From an uncultured Oscillospiraceae bacterium (GTDB taxonomy: Bacteria > Bacillota > Clostridia > Oscillospirales > Oscillospiraceae): 64,000 nucleotides of DNA. Positions 6,138-33,500 of this stretch are shown here, one piece after another. The stretch covers positions 5,037 through 69,036 of the forward strand of contig CAZDFB010000002.1 in the NCBI GenBank assembly GCA_964504605.1. The letters run 5' to 3'. The stretch's first letter is position 1. Each line of letters begins with the position of its first letter. The translations under genes and the position numbers were made by a program. A model generated the notes under the pieces. It did no database searches, was not told the DNA's origin, and saw nothing but the letters and a program-made list of their open reading frames with translations.

Positions 6138-6638
6138 ATGAGACATAAAATCAACCTTGTATTCGAAGAGCTGAGCCTGCAAAAATTTACCATTCGGGCC
6201 ATAATCAAAAAGTGCATTCAGGAAACCTTAAAAGCGGAGGGAATCGGTGTTCCTTGCGAGATCAATGTCCTGGTGACCAACGATGCCGGGATTCAGCTGG
6301 TGAATCAGACCAGCCGGAATATTGACCGGCCTACGGATGTTCTTTCCTTCCCCATGTTTCAGCTGGAGCCGGGCAATCCGCCCACAGACTGGGTGCCCTA
6401 TCAGGACCCACAGACCGGTCTGGTGCCGCTGGGGGATATGTGCATCTCTTTGGAGCGGGCTGTGGCCCAGGCTCAGGAGTTCGGTCACAGCGCCCGCCGG
6501 GAGGTGGGGTATCTGACCATCCACTCCATGCTCCATCTGCTGGGCTACGACCACCTGGACGAGGGCCCCATGAAAAAGCAAATGCGGGGCAGGGAAGAGC
6601 AGATCGCTGCTGCAATTCCCAACATGAGCAGAGACTGA
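6138..6638 (+). CDS. ybeY: rRNA maturation endoribonuclease YbeY
   Basis: Zn motif HSMLHLLGYDH. ATG at 6138 directly after the phoH stop. Confidence 0.9.
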   Translation: MRHKINLVFEELSLQKFTIRAIIKKCIQETLKAEGIGVPCEINVLVTNDAGIQLVNQTSRNIDRPTDVLSFPMFQLEPGNPPTDWVPYQDPQTGLVPLGDMCISLERAVAQAQEFGHSARREVGYLTIHSMLHLLGYDHLDEGPMKKQMRGREEQIAAAIPNMSRD

Positions 6639-9146: not shown

Positions 9147-11522
9147 ATGTCTGAACTATACGAAAAATCCCTTCTCAAGCTGGAGCTTGACCAGGTCTTG
9201 CAGCTTCTGGCGGACTGCGCCGGATCTGCCGGCGGCAAGGAGGCCTGCCTGCGGGTGCGGCCCAGCTCTGATCTGGAGGACGTAAATTTAATGCTGCAGC
9301 AGACGACGGCAGCATCTGACCTTTGTACCCGGAAGGGTAACCCTATTTTCGGAGACGTTGCCGATGTTTCGGCATCTCTGGAGCGGGCGGACCGGTGCGG
9401 CAGCCTGCAGCCTGTGGAACTGCTGCGGATTGGCGGCGTTCTTCGCTGCGCCCGGAATATTAAGGGCTATGTGTCCGATGATGATCCGCCGACGGTGCTG
9501 GATATTCTTTTCCGCGGGCTGACCCCCAATAAATATCTGGAAGACCGGATTTTCGGCGCAATCCTTTCCGAGGAGGAGATTGCGGACAACGCTTCTCCGG
9601 CTCTGGCGGATATCCGGCGGCATATGCGCATTCAGGCCGGCAAAATCCGGGACAGCCTGCAAAAGGTGATTTCCTCTCCAGCTTACAGCAAGTTCCTCCG
9701 GGAGCCCATTATTACCATCCGGGACGGACGGTATGTGGTGCCCGTGAAGAGCGAGTGTAAAAACGATGTTCCGGGCCTTGTTCATGATGTATCCGCCACA
9801 GGTTCCACCTATTTTGTGGAGCCCATGAGCGCCGTTACCGCCAACAATGCCCTGCGGGAGCTGGAGCTGAAGGAAAAGAAGGAAATCGAGCGGATCCTTG
9901 CGGAGCTGTCTGCGGAGGCGGCGGCCCACGGGGAGGATATCAACCTGAACTACCGGATGCTGGTGGAGCTGGACGTGATTTTCGCCAAGGCTAAGCTGGC
10001 CTACCGGATGCGGGCCTGGGCTCCCATCATGAACGAGGAGGGCAGAATTGACCTTCGGAAAGCCCGCCACCCGCTGATTGATGACAAAAAGGTGGTTCCT
10101 GTTTCCGTGCGTCTTGGCTCGGATTTTGATACGATGATTATTACCGGTCCCAATACCGGCGGCAAAACCGTTACCTTGAAGACCATTGGCCTGCTGACGC
10201 TGATGGCGGAATGCGGACTCCATATCCCCGCCGGGGACGGAAGCCAGCTTTCCACCTTTGAGGCGATTCTGGCGGATATCGGTGACGAGCAGAGCATTGC
10301 CCAGAGCCTTTCCACCTTCTCCAGCCATATGAGAACCATTGTGGATGTGGTCGATCAGTGTGACGACCGCACACTGGTGCTTTTTGATGAGCTGGGCGCG
10401 GGCACGGACCCTGCGGAGGGCGCTGCCCTTGCCATGGCAATCATCGAATTTTGCCGGAAGCTGAACAGCCGGGTGGTGGCAACGACCCACTACGCCGAGC
10501 TTAAGCTCTACGCCATGCGCACCAGGGGCGTTATCAATGCCTCCTGTGAATTTGACGTGGAGAGCCTTCGGCCCACCTACAAGCTCCTGATCGGCATTCC
10601 CGGCAAATCCAATGCCTTTGCGATTTCCCGGAAGTTGGGGCTTTCAGAGGACATCCTGAAGGAAGCGGATGACCTGGTGGGAAAAAGCGACAAGGATTTT
10701 GAAGATGTGCTCAGCCAGCTGGAGCAGCAGCGCCAGCAGATGGAAGCCGCCAGAAGGGAAGCGGAGCGGCTGAGGCAGGAAACGGCCCGGATCAAGCAGC
10801 AGAGCGAGGAATACAATGCTCAGCTGCAGAAGGAAAAGGAAAAGGCTATGGAGGCCGCCCGGAAGGAGGCCCAGCATATTATCGAGGAGGCCCGGGCGGC
10901 AGCAAACCTGGCATCCGAGGAGCTGAAGGCTCTGCGCAAGCAGCTTCAGAACAGTGCCGATACTACCAATCTCAACCAGCGTCAGGCGGAGGTCCGGAGA
11001 AGCCTGAATGAAATGGAGAGCAAGATTCGCTCCACCCAGCCCAAGGCCGAGCGGCCTCAGCCCAAGCGTGGAATTATGGTGGGCGATACGGTAGAGCTGC
11101 TGAAGCTGGGCACCAAGGCCAATGTTATTGCCATCAATAAGGACGGAACCTACCAGCTTCAGGCAGGAATCCTGAAGATGAACGCGAAGGCTGACGAAAT
11201 CTACCTGCTGGAGAACGAAAACCCCTATAAGGTCAAAGGTCGTCCTGCCCACTCGGGCCGGGAGATGAAGATGACGGCTATGTCCAGCGAGGTGGACCTG
11301 CGCGGCATGGATACGGTGGAGGCAGTGTGCGTGCTGGAGCGGTATATGGATGAGGCTATGCGGTCGAACCTGTCCCAGGTGCGGATTATCCACGGCAAGG
11401 GAACCGGTGTGCTCCGGGCCGCGGTTCAGCAGGCACTGAAAAAGAATAAATATGTAAAAAAATTCCGTCTGGGCGTGTATGGTGAGGGCGAGGACGGCGT
11501 TACCATCGCTGAGTTTGTTTGA
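9147..11522 (+). CDS. mutS2: Endonuclease MutS2
   Basis: 791 aa. Walker A GPNTGGKT, a long coiled coil and a C-terminal Smr domain (DLRGM...IIHGKGTGVLR). Confidence 0.95.
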   Translation: MSELYEKSLLKLELDQVLQLLADCAGSAGGKEACLRVRPSSDLEDVNLMLQQTTAASDLCTRKGNPIFGDVADVSASLERADRCGSLQPVELLRIGGVLRCARNIKGYVSDDDPPTVLDILFRGLTPNKYLEDRIFGAILSEEEIADNASPALADIRRHMRIQAGKIRDSLQKVISSPAYSKFLREPIITIRDGRYVVPVKSECKNDVPGLVHDVSATGSTYFVEPMSAVTANNALRELELKEKKEIERILAELSAEAAAHGEDINLNYRMLVELDVIFAKAKLAYRMRAWAPIMNEEGRIDLRKARHPLIDDKKVVPVSVRLGSDFDTMIITGPNTGGKTVTLKTIGLLTLMAECGLHIPAGDGSQLSTFEAILADIGDEQSIAQSLSTFSSHMRTIVDVVDQCDDRTLVLFDELGAGTDPAEGAALAMAIIEFCRKLNSRVVATTHYAELKLYAMRTRGVINASCEFDVESLRPTYKLLIGIPGKSNAFAISRKLGLSEDILKEADDLVGKSDKDFEDVLSQLEQQRQQMEAARREAERLRQETARIKQQSEEYNAQLQKEKEKAMEAARKEAQHIIEEARAAANLASEELKALRKQLQNSADTTNLNQRQAEVRRSLNEMESKIRSTQPKAERPQPKRGIMVGDTVELLKLGTKANVIAINKDGTYQLQAGILKMNAKADEIYLLENENPYKVKGRPAHSGREMKMTAMSSEVDLRGMDTVEAVCVLERYMDEAMRSNLSQVRIIHGKGTGVLRAAVQQALKKNKYVKKFRLGVYGEGEDGVTIAEFV

Positions 11523-27958: not shown

Positions 27959-28405
27959 TTGGAGCATAAACCGAATTATACCGAAGGAACGGAGGGCAAT
28001 CTGCCTGCACTGGCACCCCTTGCCAATCCCTATGTCCCATTCCAGATGGAAAACCCACCAAAGTATGAGCCCAGGAAAGCCATGGTGCGGGGCACCCTGT
28101 TTCCTGGGCTGGATCTTCCGTTTATGGGGATGGTAAACCAGAAGGAAGGGGCTGTGACACCCCTTGCTGAGCTTCAGGTCATGGCATTTGCGCTGCAGGA
28201 GCTGGCTCTGTATCTGGATACCCACCGGGAGGACGCTGAGACGCTGGAAATGTACCGGGAATACCAGAGACGCTACCGGGAGGCGGAGGAGGCTTATACA
28301 GAGGATTACGGCCCTCTGAATCATCTGACACCGGTGACGGGACCTTACGGCTGGCTGGACGATCCGTGGCCCTGGGAATACGGCCTGAACCGAAAGGAGG
28401 ACTGA
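27959..28405 (+). CDS. cotJA/cotJB: Fused CotJA-CotJB spore-coat-associated protein
   Basis: The N-terminal half LANPYVPFQ...AMVRGTLFPGLDLPF is the CotJA pattern. The C-terminal half ...FALQELALYLDTHRED...YGPL...DPWPWE is the CotJB pattern. TTG start 8 nt after AGGAGGA. Confidence 0.75.
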   Translation: MEHKPNYTEGTEGNLPALAPLANPYVPFQMENPPKYEPRKAMVRGTLFPGLDLPFMGMVNQKEGAVTPLAELQVMAFALQELALYLDTHREDAETLEMYREYQRRYREAEEAYTEDYGPLNHLTPVTGPYGWLDDPWPWEYGLNRKED

Positions 28406-28408
28406 GCC

Positions 28409-28831
28409 ATGTTTGTGTATGACAAGAAATTGCAGTACCCGGTAAAAATTGACAAACCCAATCCCCGTCTGGCTGCGCTCATCATATCCCAGTATGGCGG
28501 GCCTGATGGCGAGCTGGGAGCATCGCTGCGGTATCTGAGCCAGCGCTACGCCATGCCCTTTGATGAGCTGAAGGGATTGCTTACGGATATCGGTACCGAA
28601 GAGCTGGGGCATTTGGAGATGATCGGTGCGATTGTCCACCAGCTGACCCGGAATTTAAAGGATTCTCAGATTCAGGATTCCGCTTTTGCTCCTTATTTTG
28701 TGGATCATACGGCGGGCATTTACCCAACCGCCGCTTCCGGATTCCCTTGGAACGCTGCCAGCATGGCGGTTAAGGGGGATCCTATGGCGGATTTGACGGA
28801 GGATCTGGCGGCAGATGGTACGACTGCGTAA
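28409..28831 (+). pseudogene. cotJC: cotJC 5' segment (codons 1-135 authentic, then 5 element-derived codons and a stop). The gene is interrupted by the element.
   Basis: MFVYDKKLQYPVKIDKPNP...QYGGPDGELGASLRYL...GTEELGHLEM...KGDPMADLTEDLAA matches CotJC/Mn-catalase-family N-terminal two-thirds. Reading continues DGTTA* into foreign DNA. Confidence 0.85.
28811..28815 (+). other. Left junction core GCAGA (putative crossover GA at 28814-28815)
   Basis: Identical pentamer, in the same codon phase, to the one at 33306-33310. Confidence 0.7.
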
Positions 28832-28838
28832 GAACAAC
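28829..28838. repeat. Left terminal inverted repeat arm TAAGAACAAC
   Basis: Perfect reverse complement of 33286-33295. It lies 13 nt from the GA, the same distance as the right arm. Confidence 0.65.
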
Positions 28839-29069
28839 ACACAGTCTGAAATGATAGGACAAGCCATTTCTAAAACATAATACCGTACCTACAAGACGTT
28901 CAGAAATGAGCGTCTTTTTTTATACCCTCTGTTACGGAGTAGGAACGAAAAAGACCTTGCCACGCAAGGCTTTCCGGGCGTGTTTCTGACCGGGTAAGGG
29001 GTTTATACCTTATCCCTCAAAATCGCCGTTCTACTGCGTAACAAATCCGAAATAAAGGAGTGAACCACA

Positions 29070-29585
29070 ATGGCAGTTTTCCGAGTGGAACGAAACACAG
29101 GCTACACCGTAATGAGCAACCACCACCTACGCAACAAGGAGCTGTCCCTAAAGGCAAAGGGGCTGTTATCGCAAATGCTGTCCTTGCCGGAGGATTGGGA
29201 CTATACCCTTGCGGGGCTGTCCTACATCAACCGGGAAAGTATCGACGCTATCCGTACTGCGATATGGGAGCTTGAAAAAGCCGGATATATCACAAGGCGG
29301 CAGGGACGCGACGAGAAAGGCAAAATGACAGCGATTGAATACACCATTTACGAGCAGCCGCAACCGCCGCAGTTGGAAAAGCCGATATTGGAAAATCCAA
29401 CAGTGGGCAAACCGATATTGGAAAATCCGACAACGGATAATCCGACGTCGGAAAATCCAATGCAATTAAATAAAGATATACAAAGAACTGACTTACCAAA
29501 GAAAGAAAAATCAAATACGGATTTATCAAGTACCCATTCCATTCCTAGGAACGCTTACCGGCTATCTTATGTGTCAAGTATTTAG
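29070..29585 (+). CDS. Winged-helix/HTH DNA-binding protein of the kind common in clostridial integrative elements, probably C-terminally truncated
   Basis: MAVFRVERNTGYTVMSNHHLRNKELSLKAKGLLSQMLSLPEDWDYTLAGL...AIWELEKAGYI. RBS AAAGGAG upstream. The conserved-looking sequence gives way abruptly to AT-rich DNA after about residue 155. Confidence 0.65.
   Translation: MAVFRVERNTGYTVMSNHHLRNKELSLKAKGLLSQMLSLPEDWDYTLAGLSYINRESIDAIRTAIWELEKAGYITRRQGRDEKGKMTAIEYTIYEQPQPPQLEKPILENPTVGKPILENPTTDNPTSENPMQLNKDIQRTDLPKKEKSNTDLSSTHSIPRNAYRLSYVSSI
29376..29460 (+). repeat. In-frame tandem repeat (30-nt period) encoding (K)PILENPT units
   Basis: CCGATATTGGAAAATCC occurs at 29382-29398 and 29412-29428, with a third degenerate GGAAAATCC copy at 29450-29458. 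Confidence 0.6.
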
Positions 29586-29589
29586 CAGC

Positions 29590-29745
29590 ATGAGCGTGTT
29601 CGGAAAAGTTGAGTATCATTTTCCGCTGTTTGAAATGCTGGCATATTTTCTCTTTATGCTGGTCATTCAAATGTTCTTTTCCACGCAGACAATCCGGCAA
29701 ATTAAAAAACAATCCTTGATAGAACAAATACGAGAAATAGCATAA
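29590..29745 (+). CDS. Candidate 51-aa hydrophobic ORF, possibly the remnant 3' end of a deleted gene
   Basis: ATG 29590 to TAA 29743-29745, followed immediately by a strong terminator. No RBS. Below the ORF-track cutoff. Confidence 0.2.
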   Translation: MSVFGKVEYHFPLFEMLAYFLFMLVIQMFFSTQTIRQIKKQSLIEQIREIA

Positions 29746-29756
29746 TTCTTTCTTGA

Positions 29757-29797
29757 AAACCGGGGTGCAGACGATAGCCACCCCGGTTTTTCTTTTT
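29757..29797 (+). terminator. Rho-independent terminator inside the element
   Basis: AAAACCGGGGTG / CACCCCGGTTTT stem followed by TCTTTTT. Confidence 0.55.
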
Positions 29798-29979
29798 GAG
29801 ATTTTTTGAAATCTCCTTATCTTGTAACAATTCAGCATGATTATTTGTTGAAATTGAGAATGGCACGGAGATTTTTGTGACATTCATTCTTTATAATTAC
29901 AGCAGAATAGAAAAGCACTCTGCCGCACGACGGCAAAAGAAAAAAAGCCGTCGTACAGCAGCCCTATCAACACGCCTAT

Positions 29980-30024
29980 GAAACGGCGGCTTTGAGAAAA
30001 ATTCAGAGCCGCCGTTTCTTTTCG
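29980..30024 (+). terminator. Long stem-loop / terminator inside the element
   Basis: GAAACGGCGGCTTTGAG / TCAGAGCCGCCGTTTC stem followed by TTTTCG. Confidence 0.5.
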
Positions 30025-30225
30025 TCTATCCTAAACCAACGACGACCCAACACCGTGTAAAGTACACGGCGGCAAACAAGGAGGATTTGTCGCCGTGTCT
30101 ATTTTTGCATTGATACACAGCACCCATGATTTGCACCAGTTAAAAAAAGCATAGCCCCACCTCCGGGATATTCTGCTTTTGAATGTGAACTGTCAGTTCT
30201 TTATATTGCTTTTGTTATTTCCTAT

Positions 30226-30265
30226 GCGTCTGTCCGCGCCCTTTTGCGGACAGGCGCATTTTGTC
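30226..30265 (+). terminator. Stem-loop upstream of the sigma-like gene (terminator or attenuator candidate)
   Basis: GCGTCTGTCCGC / GCGGACAGGCGC (one mismatch) followed by ATTTTGTCGTTTC. Confidence 0.4.
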
Positions 30266-30389
30266 GTTTCGGAGAAATTTTTTCAAAAACTTTCTCTGAA
30301 TGTTTGGCATTTTCCCCGTGCCGTTTGTTGAGGGGTTACGAAAGGGGAAATCATCACCCGCTTTCGCGGTTGCGAAAGGAGGTGATACC

Positions 30390-30827
30390 ATGAATGAACC
30401 TAATCGTACCCAATGGCAAATCCGATGTGCTTTTAACGGGTTCTGCAAGCGGGCATTGAAGAATGAAGCTATCAATGCTCACGGGGAGATCAAAAGGCGG
30501 CAGCTACAAGAAGTTTCGTTTTCTGACCTTACTCCGCAAGAGGAAAATCAGCTTTACACCTACGACACTTACTTTGAACATGATGAAGCTGAAAAATCCT
30601 TTTGTATGGCAGGCAAGGAAATAACTGCAAAACTGCTTGCCGAAGCCCTGCACAGGTTGCCGGACGATAAACGGGAAGCCGTATTGCTGTATTACTTTTT
30701 CGATATGAATGACGCGGAGATTGCAAAGCTCCACGACATTCCGAGAAGCACAGTACAGTACCGACGGACAAGCTCATTTGAACTGTTAAAACGCTATTTG
30801 GAGGAACGCGCCTATGACTGCACATAA
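30390..30827 (+). CDS. Sigma-70 region-4-type small sigma-like factor (Tn916 Orf7-like)
   Basis: 145 aa. The C-terminus LPDDKREAVLLYYFFDMNDAEIAKLHDIPRSTVQYRRTSSFELLKRYL is a sigma r4 HTH. RBS AAAGGAGGTG upstream. Confidence 0.75.
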   Translation: MNEPNRTQWQIRCAFNGFCKRALKNEAINAHGEIKRRQLQEVSFSDLTPQEENQLYTYDTYFEHDEAEKSFCMAGKEITAKLLAEALHRLPDDKREAVLLYYFFDMNDAEIAKLHDIPRSTVQYRRTSSFELLKRYLEERAYDCT

Positions 30828-31065
30828 TGGTAACACCGAACAGGACGAGCGCGGCTTGTTACCGTACCCGGTAATCATAGCCGCAACAAAGGGCGACCCG
30901 GAAGCTATGAAGATTGTCGTACAACATTACGAAAGCTACATAGCGTCCCTGTCTATGAGAAAACTCCGCGACGAACGCGGCAACACCTACTACGGCATAG
31001 ACGAGGACATACGCGACCGCTTACGGTCAAAGCTCATGCGGGCTGTCCTTTCATTCAAGGTATAA
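30814..31065 (+). CDS. Conjugative-transposon-type helix-turn-helix protein (Tn916 Orf8-like, HTH_16-like)
   Basis: 83 aa. ...AATKGDPEAMKIVVQHYESYIASLSMRKL... It overlaps the sigma-like gene by 14 nt, the usual Orf7/Orf8 arrangement. Confidence 0.7.
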   Translation: MTAHNGNTEQDERGLLPYPVIIAATKGDPEAMKIVVQHYESYIASLSMRKLRDERGNTYYGIDEDIRDRLRSKLMRAVLSFKV

Positions 31066-31503
31066 GGTAGACCCGGCAGCGTCCCCCTTTCCGCTGCCTA
31101 TGGCTATCCTGCCTTTTCTGCTCCTTGACAAAGAAAGCGACGCAAGATAACGGCGGCGCAGCATAGGGCAAATCAGATACGTTCCTTTTGCGCCGAGCCA
31201 TGCGGTGGGTGCGCCATGACTTCCCGACCGGGAATGAGCGACCAACACCACGCCGGAAAACAAGTGTAGCGGCTTGTGGGCGACGACACGCAAAATACAT
31301 AATGATACTCCCTTACAGCCACAGTCCGAGCGTTCAAAGCGTCGCAGGCAATGGGTAGGGCTGCGCGAGAACCGCGCAGGGGTGGAACTCCCGTGAGATT
31401 GCAGCTAACAATCGTCTGATAAAAGCCCCTCTTTTTATGTTGTAATAGTGGACTTGCCACTATTCATATAGTGTATTAGCCATTTCTGAAAGGGGGCTAA
31501 ACA

Positions 31504-31653
31504 TTGGAAAAAACACAAAACCCTAAACCTATTTGTAAGAGTGTTTTCAAAAGCGGCGAAAACACGACTTCTAAAACACAATTCACAAAAACGTGGATTG
31601 AAATGATAAATAAAATTGAGAAAGGCAAAATTGTAAACTTTTCTAAAAAGTGA
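31504..31653 (+). CDS. Candidate 49-aa basic ORF just upstream of the recombinase (function unknown, speculative directionality factor)
   Basis: TTG start 7 nt after AAAGGGGG. The peptide is (M)EKTQNPKPICKSVFKSGENTTSKTQFTKTWIEMINKIEKGKIVNFSKK. Below the ORF-track cutoff. Confidence 0.25.
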   Translation: MEKTQNPKPICKSVFKSGENTTSKTQFTKTWIEMINKIEKGKIVNFSKK

Positions 31654-31655
31654 TG

Positions 31656-31700
31656 ACAAGCCGTTTCTGTTGTGATACGATCACGATAGAAATGGCTTGT
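31656..31700 (+). promoter_or_regulatory. Extended stem-loop immediately upstream of the recombinase RBS
   Basis: ACAAGCCGTTTCT / AGAAATGGCTTGT (13 bp including one G-U) encloses an inner GTGAT-ACG-ATCAC hairpin. It is followed by TCTATCTCTT and then GAAGGAG-N7-ATG. Confidence 0.45.
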
Positions 31701-31725
31701 TCTATCTCTTGAAGGAGATACGAAC

Positions 31726-33279
31726 ATGAAAGTAGCTATTTATTGCCGCTTATCCGAAGAAGATAGAAACAAGCAATTTGAAACCGACGACAGCAACAGC
31801 ATACAGAACCAAAAGGCTATGCTGCTGCAATACGCTGCGGAACAGGGGTGGGAACTTTACAACATATACAGCGACGACGACTACACGGGTTTAGATAGAC
31901 GACGCCCGGAATTTAACCGTCTGCTCAAAGACGCAGAAGCACACAAATTTGATATTATCCTCTGTAAAACACAATCCCGCTTCACCCGTGAATTGGAATT
32001 AGTTGAGAAGTACATACACGGGCTATTCCCTATTTGGGGTATTCGTTTCATCAGCATTGTTGACAACGCCGATACCGCCAACAAGGGCAACAAAAAGTCA
32101 CGGCAGATCAACGGACTTGTCAATGAATGGTATTTGGAGGATATGTCCGAGAATATCCGCAGCGTTCTGACCAACAGACGAGTGAATGGTTTTCATATCG
32201 GTGCATTTGCCCTTTATGGGTACAAGAAAGACCCCGACCAAAAGGGACACTTGATAATCGACGAAGAAGCCGCAGCCGTTGTCCGAGAAGTATTTACCCT
32301 ATTCGCAGAGGGTTACGGAAAAACTGCGATTGCCCGTATGCTCAATGACAGGGGCATACCTAATCCAACTGAATATAAGCGTCTGCATGGCTTACGATAT
32401 AAGCAGCCGAAAACCAAAAACAGCACTTTATGGAAATACTTTGCTATTTCCGATATGCTGATAAATGAAATCTATATTGGAAATATGGTTCAAGGCAAAT
32501 ACGGCAGCGTTTCCTATAAGACGAAGCAAAACAAACCCCGCCCTAAAAGTGAGTGGTACATTGTCGAGGGGACGCATGAGCCAATCATAGACCGTGAGTT
32601 ATGGGACAGAGTGCAGGCGTTGGTGGAACAGAAAGCGAAACCGTTTGACGTTGGTACAATCGGCTTGTTTGCACGAAAAGCCCGTTGTGCTAATTGCGGT
32701 TACACGATGCGTTCTTCCAAAAATCGCGGCAGACACTATCTGCAATGCTCAAACCGCCATGTGGCAAAAGACGCTTGTATCGGTTCTTTTATCTCTGTTG
32801 ATAAATTGGAGGGGCTTGTCATTGACGAGCTGAACCGTTTAGCAGCCGAGTATCTTGACAAGGACGAGTTAGAACAGAATATTGAGTTTTGCGATAACTT
32901 ACAGGCACAAAAATCCCGCCTACTCTCCGACATAGCAATCTACGAAAAAAAGGTTGCAGAGTATTCAAAGGGTATTCGGGAGCTTTACATGGATAAGGTC
33001 AAGGGCTTAATTTCTGAAAGTGATTATTTGGAAATGTCAAAGGATTTTACCACAGACCGCGACCGTTTAGAGCGCGTGATCGCTGACGGACAAAAGCAGT
33101 TATCCGAAATCGAAGAAAAAATTGCGGCGGGCGACAATCGCCGCGAACTGATTGAACAATATACCAACTTGGAACATCTAACCCGTGAAATTGTGGAAAC
33201 GCTGATTGATTATATATCTGTTGGCAAGCGTATTCCGGGAACAAAGGACGTTCCGATTGAAATTCACTGGAACTTTTAA
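31726..33279 (+). CDS. Large serine recombinase (TnpX/TndX-like, DUF4368-type C-terminus)
   Basis: 517 aa. Resolvase catalytic N-terminus MKVAIYCRLSEED, recombinase domain, Cys cluster CANCG...C...C, coiled coil and the tail ...LIDYISVG......IEIHWNF. The stop lies 7 nt before the right inverted repeat. Confidence 0.93.
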   Translation: MKVAIYCRLSEEDRNKQFETDDSNSIQNQKAMLLQYAAEQGWELYNIYSDDDYTGLDRRRPEFNRLLKDAEAHKFDIILCKTQSRFTRELELVEKYIHGLFPIWGIRFISIVDNADTANKGNKKSRQINGLVNEWYLEDMSENIRSVLTNRRVNGFHIGAFALYGYKKDPDQKGHLIIDEEAAAVVREVFTLFAEGYGKTAIARMLNDRGIPNPTEYKRLHGLRYKQPKTKNSTLWKYFAISDMLINEIYIGNMVQGKYGSVSYKTKQNKPRPKSEWYIVEGTHEPIIDRELWDRVQALVEQKAKPFDVGTIGLFARKARCANCGYTMRSSKNRGRHYLQCSNRHVAKDACIGSFISVDKLEGLVIDELNRLAAEYLDKDELEQNIEFCDNLQAQKSRLLSDIAIYEKKVAEYSKGIRELYMDKVKGLISESDYLEMSKDFTTDRDRLERVIADGQKQLSEIEEKIAAGDNRRELIEQYTNLEHLTREIVETLIDYISVGKRIPGTKDVPIEIHWNF

Positions 33280-33285
33280 TCAAAA

Positions 33286-33295
33286 GTTGTTCTTA
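33286..33295. repeat. Right terminal inverted repeat arm GTTGTTCTTA
   Basis: Reverse complement of 28829-28838, located 13 nt before the GA at 33309-33310. Confidence 0.65.
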
Positions 33296-33305
33296 TATGA
33301 TTGTA

Positions 33306-33500
33306 GCAGAGCAGAAGGCAAGGGTAACCTATGACAATATTCTCCGGCTTTCGGATGACCCGGACGTAAATGATGTGATCAAATTCCTCCGGGAGCGGGA
33401 AATCGTCCATTTCCAGCGCTTTGGCGAGGCCTGTCAGCTGCTCAGAGAGAAGCTGGATCGAAGAAATGTGTATTATATGAATCCTGCTTTCGATATGTAA
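33306..33500 (+). pseudogene. cotJC: cotJC 3' segment (about the last 63 codons). It becomes in frame with 28409-28815 after excision.
   Basis: (A)EQKARVTYDNILRLSDDPDVNDVIKFLREREIVHFQRFGEACQLL...YYMNPAFDM is the conserved CotJC C-terminus. It has no RBS or plausible start of its own. Confidence 0.85.

Follow-up and report, generated by a model that had tools for sequence, protein, structure and literature searches.

A 4.5-kb element with a TnpX/TndX-like large serine recombinase, very probably integrated at a GA dinucleotide of cotJC in an uncultured Oscillospiraceae bacterium

Introduction

Several mother-cell sporulation and coat genes are split by elements that encode a large serine recombinase (LSR) at one end. 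The described cases include skin in sigK (recombinase SpoIVCA, or CD1231 with the recombination directionality factor (RDF) CD1234), SPbeta in spsM (SprA/SprB), gin in gerE (GirC/GirX) and yin in yabG, and precise excision restores the open reading frame (ORF). SPbeta combines the roles of phage and developmental element. Here we analyse a stretch of 64,000 nucleotides from an uncultured Oscillospiraceae bacterium (contig CAZDFB010000002.1, referred to throughout as the window), in which the spore-coat gene cotJC is interrupted by a 4.5-kb element with its own LSR gene. As with skin, SPbeta, gin and yin, removal of the element restores the ORF, in this case in silico, and, like gin, the element is not a phage; it can also be likened to vfbin among the elements that interrupt sporulation genes. 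It differs from the first four in its hosts, which are gut Lachnospiraceae and Oscillospiraceae rather than Bacillus or C. difficile, and in having a recombination module that is common to many cargos resembling integrative mobilizable elements (IMEs) and occurs in both orientations.

The attachment (att) sites and regulation of these systems provide the closest points of reference. In these elements, as here, attP forms an inverted repeat with a dinucleotide at its centre (PMC5595907). In skin(Cd), as demonstrated by experiment, the small, unrelated RDF CD1234 is expressed from a sigma-E/K-type promoter and the recombinase CD1231 is sigma-A driven (PMC5025042), and the SprB/SprA layout is similar (PMC4191935). 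In its predicted layout, the window module matches CD1234/CD1231 and resembles SprB/SprA and GirX/GirC.

Among mobile elements, the nearest comparison is with TnpX (Tn4451/Tn4453) and TndX (Tn5397), which, like the window family, are clostridial, act as single LSRs and exchange strands across a 2-bp core. Crellin and Rood are said to have identified GA as the TnpX crossover dinucleotide in 1997. An earlier sequence-only reading of this DNA named GA as the dinucleotide used by TnpX and TndX; a central GA is stated for TndX (PMC4430133), and 2-bp strand exchange is described for Tn4451 (PMC5704250). On comparative evidence, the window family shares the GA crossover of the TnpX/TndX subgroup. As in the window, elements of the Tn916/Tn5397 type have regulatory genes for a sigma factor and an HTH_16 protein upstream of the recombinase gene, and Tn4451 is mobilizable with a relaxase, as are the window element's relatives. 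Target specificity is low for Tn4451, and a Fic-domain gene is the preferred target of Tn5397, whereas the window family is essentially specific for one cotJC codon. TnpX and TndX reportedly work without an accessory factor (PMC5704250), whereas a conserved small ORF precedes the recombinase in the window family, whose recombinase possibly does not act unaided in the TnpX/TndX manner.

Two further systems share part of this picture. Streptococcal IMEs in rumA combine high site specificity in a dispensable conserved gene with very short direct end repeats (PMC5704250), much as here. They carry a relaxase and lack a type IV secretion system, as do the window element's relatives, whereas the window copy lacks one; they have no proposed RDF and their target is not a sporulation gene, whereas the locus studied here has both a candidate RDF and a sporulation target. 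The fdxN element of cyanobacterial heterocysts offers an analogy only: its LSR, XisF, removes the element from a gene needed only in a terminally differentiated cell. The NCBIfam XisF model matches the window recombinase at 8.4e-26, with 90.9 bits against a cut-off of 375, a distant match to a protein from another phylum and developmental programme. Mechanistically, the locus described below is a standard LSR att system.

Results

A mobile element interrupts cotJC at a conserved codon

The integrated element spans window positions 28816-33310, and we conclude that it was very probably put into cotJC at GA by a TnpX/TndX-like LSR. Its features and those of the flanking host genes are listed in Table 1. 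GC content is approximately 0.44 inside the element, compared with approximately 0.55 outside. The interrupted cotJC ORF continues across the left boundary to a stop at 28831. When its two parts (28409-28815 and 33311-33500) are joined at GA in silico, a 198-aa ORF results, so precise excision would restore the reading frame. The rejoined protein aligns with Mn catalases in the PDB across the junction, with the sole gap approximately 45 residues upstream, and many of its intact relatives, which are up to 94% identical, are also 198 aa long. An empty site with the same gene order is present in a related genome (L082), where the sequence reads ..CTGGCTGCC-GA-GCAGAAAGCC and the B arm ends ..GCTGCC before GA. 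The window flanks align to this empty site up to 28815 and from 33306 (tblastn and alignment).

Work on B. subtilis and C. difficile has shown that cotJC is expressed in the mother cell. The position of the interrupted gene after cotJA-cotJB marks it as this mother-cell sporulation gene, its expression in the window host being assumed. In the literature searched we found no account of cotJC as an attachment site or an interrupted gene; phage phi027 adjoins a CotJC-like gene and does not lie inside it. The cotJC-specific family is widespread and apparently undescribed.

The recombinase is complete and contains the domains PF00239, PF07508 and PF13408 in the N-to-C order expected of a serine integrase and matches a PHROG integrase family at 9.5e-103. 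Its best match among solved structures in the PDB is the TnpX catalytic domain (2mhc, E 1.2e-15, a comparison confined to that domain), ahead of TP901-1. The gene adjoins its own half of attP, with the P arm at the right end beginning 6 nt after the recombinase stop codon.

Table 1. Features of the element and its flanking host genes, in window coordinates.
Feature	Position	Strand	Evidence or description
Fused cotJA-cotJB, directly upstream of cotJC (host operon context)	27959..28405	+	Pfam CotJA 1.6e-13, CotJB 2e-22
cotJC 5' part (Mn-catalase family), codons 1-135 and the first two bases (GA) of codon Glu136	28409..28815	+	Pfam Mn_catalase 2.9e-38, profile 1-150
attL	28792..28838	+	B arm (cotJC ..GAGGATCTGGCGGCA), core GA 28814-28815, P' arm TGGTACGACTGCGTAAGAACAAC 28816-28838
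Terminator-like hairpin inside the left end	28893..28916	+	Consensus scan only; 10-pair stem then TTTTTTTAT
Cargo: replication-initiator-like HTH protein, N-terminal fragment only, 171 aa	29070..29585	+	Pfam HTH_36
Cargo: sigma-70 family region 4 factor	30300..30827	+	Pfam Sigma70_r4_2 2.9e-10; NCBIfam sigma70-ECF superfamily
Cargo: HTH_16 helix-turn-helix protein, 83 aa	30814..31065	+	Pfam HTH_16 1.4e-26
pemK RNA motif upstream of the recombination module	31299..31396	+	Rfam RF02913; 60.3 bits vs gathering 34.8, E 2.6e-9
Promoter-like motif TAATAGT-N15-CATATAGT, 31 nt before the 49-aa ORF	31443..31472	+	
Conserved 49-aa ORF directly upstream of the recombinase	31504..31653	+	TTG start, good ribosome-binding site (RBS) AAAGGGGG
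Stem-loop 31655-31701 with predicted sigma-A type promoter for the recombinase	31653..31701	+	Promoter and terminator scans
Large serine recombinase, 517 aa	31726..33279	+	Pfam Resolvase 1.2e-21, Recombinase 4.8e-28, Zn_ribbon_recom 3.3e-11, DUF4368 1.5e-8
attR	33286..33332	+	P arm GTTGTTCTTATATGATTGTAGCA 33286-33308, core GA 33309-33310, B' arm (cotJC GCAGAAGGCAAGG..)
cotJC 3' part, third base of the Glu136 codon to stop	33311..33500	+	Pfam Mn_catalase 3.1e-12, profile 147-198

The element ends are the arms of an attP-like site

The sequence-only reading had described the two ends as a symmetric arrangement of GA, 13 nt and a 10-bp inverted repeat, and direct reading of the sequence agrees with this. 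The left end consists of GA at 28814-28815, TGGTACGACTGCG at 28816-28828 and TAAGAACAAC at 28829-28838. The right end consists of GTTGTTCTTA at 33286-33295, TATGATTGTAGCA at 33296-33308 and GA at 33309-33310. The two 10-nt arms are reverse complements without a mismatch, located exactly 13 nt from GA at both ends, and the innermost hexamers, TGGTAC and TGCTAC, match at five of six positions. Joining the ends produces a 48-bp imperfect palindrome with 16 complementary positions among the 23 of each half-site. For 2,000,000 random position pairs in the window, the probability of at least 16 matches in 23 is 2.1e-5 and that of any perfect 10-nt run is 2.4e-5, while a composition-based estimate for 10 of 10 matches in a fixed register gives 9.6e-7. 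A chance origin of the inverted arms is excluded.

Both ends were recovered for 12 elements in the genome set (window included) and for 3 metagenome elements, with sizes from 4.1 to 8.5 kb. In all 12 genome-set elements, 14-17 of the 23 arm positions match symmetrically about GA, and this symmetry is kept even where the arm sequences have diverged, for example where the outer motif has become GTTGCACTTT. The P-arm consensus, derived from 80 arms (43 distinct), is GTTGttCTTatatgATTGCAgCA. The two ends of the window element constitute the P' and P arms of an attP of the serine-recombinase type. When the arms were compared by eye, no convincing match to the zinc-ribbon motif, shifted 5 bp inward, was found in attB.

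The earlier claim that overlap between the two ends is limited to the core stood only in part. There is no target-site duplication, but the window junctions share the five bases GCAGA (28811-28815 and 33306-33310), not GA alone. The extra GCA is the P arm (..GCA) resembling the Ala codon of cotJC and is not a target-site duplication. As GCAGA is common to both junctions, the window copy by itself cannot place the crossover.

Six loci (L016, L042, L045, L051, L061 and L064) have two successive P-arm-like sequences within approximately 100 nt of the recombinase stop codon. The inner one follows the recombinase and is separated from the true cotJC end by a spacer of approximately 60 nt containing a hairpin. 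The doubled arms may be a tandem-element remnant or an accessory binding site.

Related elements share one boundary and indicate crossover at GA

The recombinase has 6973 protein matches at E <= 1e-20, with 85-95% identity in all of the 120 matches listed, and at least 576 of 600 matched stretches in species-representative genomes encode a relative of it. We assembled a set of 81 related loci for comparison, 80 of them from one genome per species with recombinases 84-95% identical to that of the window, and one (L081) from a plasmid collection at 72%. The hosts of the 80 loci include Lachnospiraceae, Oscillospiraceae, Anaerotignum, Lacrimispora, Anaerotruncus and others.

The sequence-only reading had proposed searching other genomes for the ends and recording their flanks, with homologues bounded elsewhere counting against it. 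In 79 of the 81 loci the boundary is the same Ala135/Glu136 junction of cotJC, and no other boundary within cotJC was found for this family. Seventy of the loci have the recombinase-proximal P arm, then GA, then cotJC from exactly Glu136. Nine are inverted: the P arm and TC are followed by cotJC in reverse complement, with its end exactly at Ala135. Metagenome junctions containing the P arm give the same picture: 113 of 120 adjoin cotJC at this point, as does one frameshifted copy, and 4 lie outside cotJC. The cotJC fragments in the related loci are only 53-95% identical to those of the window, which indicates independent hosts rather than one inherited insertion. One off-target insertion was seen in L047 (approximately 6149-6175), where the same arm and TC are joined to an unrelated gene near greA that appears peptidase-like by eye; this suggests occasional secondary insertion sites.

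The crossover can be narrowed from both sides. On the 3' side, P' begins with T (rarely C) and B' with G or A, so in every case the shared sequence stops at the A of GA. On the 5' side, every P arm finishes in ..CA, and most hosts use GCA for Ala135, which accounts for the accidental (G)CAGA overlap. In two elements with other codons, the junctions share GA alone. These are L077 (GCAGCG-GA-TGGGGC and GCACCA-GA-GCAGAA) and L084 (GCCGCC-GA-TGGTAC.. and GCAGCA-GA-ACAGAA); the P' arm of L084 is identical to that of the window and stands behind a different B arm (..GCCGCC). In serine integrases, the central dinucleotide alone sets polarity. GA is asymmetric, and both orientations are seen with GA or TC beside the same arm, which matches this prediction. 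attL and attR thus need have no more than a 2-bp core in common, with an asymmetric dinucleotide setting polarity, and the comparison points to strand exchange at GA throughout the family.

The joint that the sequence-only reading expected of excised ends also occurs naturally, as P-GA-P' junctions in two loci. In L017 (approximately 9577-9625) it joins tandem elements. In L011 (approximately 1565-1612) it lies at a contig end and is either tandem or circular. The second recombinase gene of L017 (10600-12155) matches in three separate pieces and seems to be disrupted. A plasmid candidate for an excised circle, H1 (OY725852.1, with a recombinase 72% identical), was rejected on finding a normal P-GA-cotJC junction.

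Alternative explanations for the ends

Two other accounts of the ends were considered. Crossover at GC, CA or AG within GCAGA, instead of at GA, is very improbable. The presence of GCAGA or CAGA in both attL and attR of the window and most hosts would allow it, but in L077 and L084 the B arm ends in G or C and the P arm in A before GA, the base after GA is T on one side and G or A on the other, the arms are symmetric about GA in 12 of 12 elements, and inverted elements carry TC at exactly the GA position. Insertion sequences typically have short, perfect inverted repeats at their termini, and the ends might on that ground be taken for those of a DDE transposon, or else for a coincidental 10-bp repeat. 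We give this a negligible chance of being correct. A distance of 13 nt separates the repeats from the junction, site specificity extends to a single codon in approximately 190 independent junctions, and coincidence has a probability of approximately 1e-5 or less; domain content, boundary identity and the chance test together refute both versions. The earlier preference for serine over DDE chemistry is upheld, since the only recombinase is a serine recombinase, no transposase was found (Pfam, NCBIfam) and there is no target duplication of fixed length.

Proposed recombination mechanism

In the mechanism that we favor, the recombinase encoded at 31726-33279 would insert the element into the host spore-coat gene cotJC. 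The 23-nt ends would serve as the P' and P half-sites, each combining an outer motif (GTTGTTCTTA) with an inner motif (..TyGyAsCA), symmetric about the asymmetric GA. The attB site would be the DNA encoding the conserved Mn-catalase motif L-A-A-E-Q-K-A-R, with the GA of the Glu136 codon as its core. Both att sites would be cut with a 2-nt stagger at GA and their strands exchanged, generating attL (B-GA-P') and attR (P-GA-B'). The reverse reaction would release a circle with a 48-bp quasi-palindromic attP and restore an intact cotJC of 198 aa. We infer that the window copy is still active.

A conserved small ORF and two candidate promoters precede the recombinase

Only the recombinase gene and approximately 300 bp upstream of it are common to the related loci at the DNA level, and the remainder varies. 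The shared upstream region contains the 49-aa ORF, which is free of stops in 81 of 81 loci. Entropy at its third codon position is 1.20, compared with 0.66 and 0.54 at the other two, and the synonymous fraction of codon differences is 0.41 in frame versus 0.11 and 0.07 out of frame. The ORF is under purifying selection. It matched no Pfam or PHROG family, and its relatives fall into 30 protein clusters, all unannotated. We regard it as a candidate RDF or accessory factor.

The promoter-like motif before this ORF has the family form nnATAnn-(GGACwwG..)15-CATAnnnT, in which ATA and CATA..T persist across otherwise diverged groups. The sigma-E consensus is KMATAWW-N14(+/-1)-CATACAMT. In 53 of 76 loci the motif has no more than 3 mismatches in 15 to KMATAWW-N13-15-CATACAMT, compared with 8.6% of 4000 control windows. 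A sigma-A -10 element would not account for its conserved letters. Loci without the cargo sigma gene also have the motif; that gene is present in only 11 of the 42 relatives with upstream sequence longer than 3 kb. By its sequence, the motif resembles a mother-cell sigma-E promoter. A GGACAAG-like block within it resembles a SpoIIID box, which we note as a lead only.

A second predicted promoter, of the sigma-A type, is embedded in the stem-loop that follows. Its -35 element (ATGACA, 31653-31658) places TGACA in the 5' arm of the hairpin, and its extended -10 element (TG-A-TACGAT, ending at 31681) is in the loop, just before the recombinase RBS. The pattern nTGACn-N14-16-TGnTAnnnT occurs in 52 of 80 loci; 28 loci have TGGTATAAT as the -10 element, and the window has the weaker TGATACGAT. 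Of the 14 pairs predicted in the stem-loop, 8 show compensatory changes, and the hairpin could end upstream transcripts while starting that of the recombinase.

Developmental excision and horizontal spread

The layout of the module, with a small ORF behind a mother-cell-type promoter and the recombinase behind a housekeeping promoter, leads us to propose a directionality factor and excision in the mother cell. On this proposal, the 49-aa ORF would encode a sigma-E-driven directionality factor, the recombinase would be expressed from its own sigma-A promoter, and excision would be set off in the mother cell during sporulation, in the manner of skin, SPbeta and gin, with the spore keeping the element. 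We advance it tentatively and with somewhat less than even confidence. A competing account has not far from an even chance of being right: the att sites would be as described here, but the element would be a plain horizontal IME or IME remnant that excises for transfer only, leaving cotJC inactive in carriers. The relatives have relaxases, replication genes and ABC-transporter or two-component cargo, and their recombinases are 84-95% identical where host cotJC is 53-95% identical, a sign of recent horizontal spread. IMEs with site-specific serine recombinases disrupt dispensable genes (PMC5704250), and loss of the CotJC-like proteins CotCB and CotD is tolerated by C. difficile mutants with no major coat defect (PMC11222575). 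All four insertion points recognised in cotJC (see below) lie in DNA encoding its most conserved motifs, as expected for targeting of a broad host range. Against purely horizontal behavior, the mother-cell-type promoter motif is kept upstream of a conserved small ORF even without a cargo sigma gene, and the pairing of that ORF with a sigma-A-driven recombinase mirrors skin(Cd). The presence of two elements in one cotJC is also easiest to understand if all are removed when the gene is needed, although a dead gene would be compatible with it too. The developmental and horizontal accounts are not mutually exclusive.

Several points weigh against our own interpretation of the locus, from the crossover to mother-cell excision. 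The overlap in the window is 5 bp (GCAGA), which leaves GA unproven from that copy alone. No excision product was observed directly: a search of the metagenome collection for the exact P-GA-TGG junction of the main arm type alone, with the pattern GTTCTTATATGATTGYAGCAGATGG, returned 0 matches. The sigma-E assignment depends on a consensus from the literature, whose canonical spacer of 14 is one base shorter than the one seen here. The 49-aa ORF product belongs to no recognisable family, and its structural model is a single helix of low confidence (pLDDT 68). The window copy has no relaxase and only a fragment of its replication gene, and it may be a decaying remnant. Finally, relaxases and resistance-type cargo in the relatives fit plain horizontal elements for which cotJC is a dispensable landing site.

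Other recombinases also target cotJC

The gene is interrupted at three further conserved motifs: near aa 30 (within QYGG/PDGE), near aa 63 (within DIGT/EEL) and, following FQRFGE(A), near aa 176. The recombinases found there are distantly related, only 21-27% identical to that of the window. These insertions often occur in genomes that also have the element studied here, and several genomes hold two elements in one cotJC. It is conceivable, but on balance unlikely, that cotJC is a hub of programmed rearrangement in gut Clostridia, used by at least four unrelated or distantly related LSR element families, each specialised on a different conserved Mn-catalase motif, with the family studied here excised in the mother cell by a constitutively expressed recombinase and a 49-aa directionality factor under sigma-E control, and also spread horizontally. 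Other-site insertions were seen at 9909/13991 in L075 and at 2341/7404 in L031, and others lie just after the cotJC 3' fragment in L023, L024, L049, L050 (e.g. 9935), L058, L059 and L070.

The family provides a clean natural demonstration of the att polarity rule, with approximately 190 junctions at one GA, both orientations, and two cases in which the overlap is 2 bp. The recombinase is abundant in gut bacteria, and its defined attP/attB pair may serve genome engineering in Clostridia. Should the developmental role be real, cotJC would join sigK, spsM, gerE, spoVFB and yabG as a rearranged sporulation gene. The rearrangement would then take place in little-studied commensal spore-formers, with a module shared with mobilizable elements that carry transporter- and resistance-type cargo. 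If cotJC were in addition a hub, this developmental gene rearrangement would rank among the most widespread in the human gut microbiota. In these taxa, annotators should expect to meet cotJC broken into two to three pseudogene fragments.

Cargo and other features of the locus

Relatives of the window element are IMEs that share one recombination unit. Relaxases are encoded in L006 (PF03432 with NikA/MobC) and L050 (MobA_MobL), and RepA/DnaC-like genes, ABC transporters and two-component systems are also found. A Pfam scan of the window proteins detected no relaxase in the window copy, which does not itself qualify as an IME and is a reduced derivative of the family. Its replication-initiator-like ORF is truncated: PHROG replication-initiation families match it only over approximately the N-terminal 110-230 of 300-455 positions. 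Within this ORF are five tandem 15-nt units (29358-29461) that encode a pentapeptide repeat, PILEN/PTVGK/PTTDN.. The sigma-70 factor is of the kind found in Tn916/Tn5397-type elements. The terminator-like hairpin at the left end would stop read-through from the truncated cotJC.

Part of the left end resembles the hairpin upstream of the recombinase. The 20 nt at 28853-28872 are 95% complementary to 31687-31706, the 3' arm of that hairpin, and are a direct copy of its 5' arm; 28845-28871 and 31642-31668 form a related pair. The 20-nt match was not seen conserved at the left ends of the relatives.

In the host operon, the CotJA and CotJB domains are in one 148-aa ORF, and the same arrangement is present in L082. 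No sigma-E-like promoter with 4 or fewer mismatches was found before cotJA/B in the window; a weak sigma-K-like sequence, AC-N17-CATAGTATG, was noted there by eye only. The pemK RNA motif lies between the HTH_16 gene and the recombination module and recurs at the corresponding position in 9 of 12 further loci (L001, L002, L008, L014, L016, L020, L029, L037 and L043), where it tends to accompany the sigma and HTH_16 genes.

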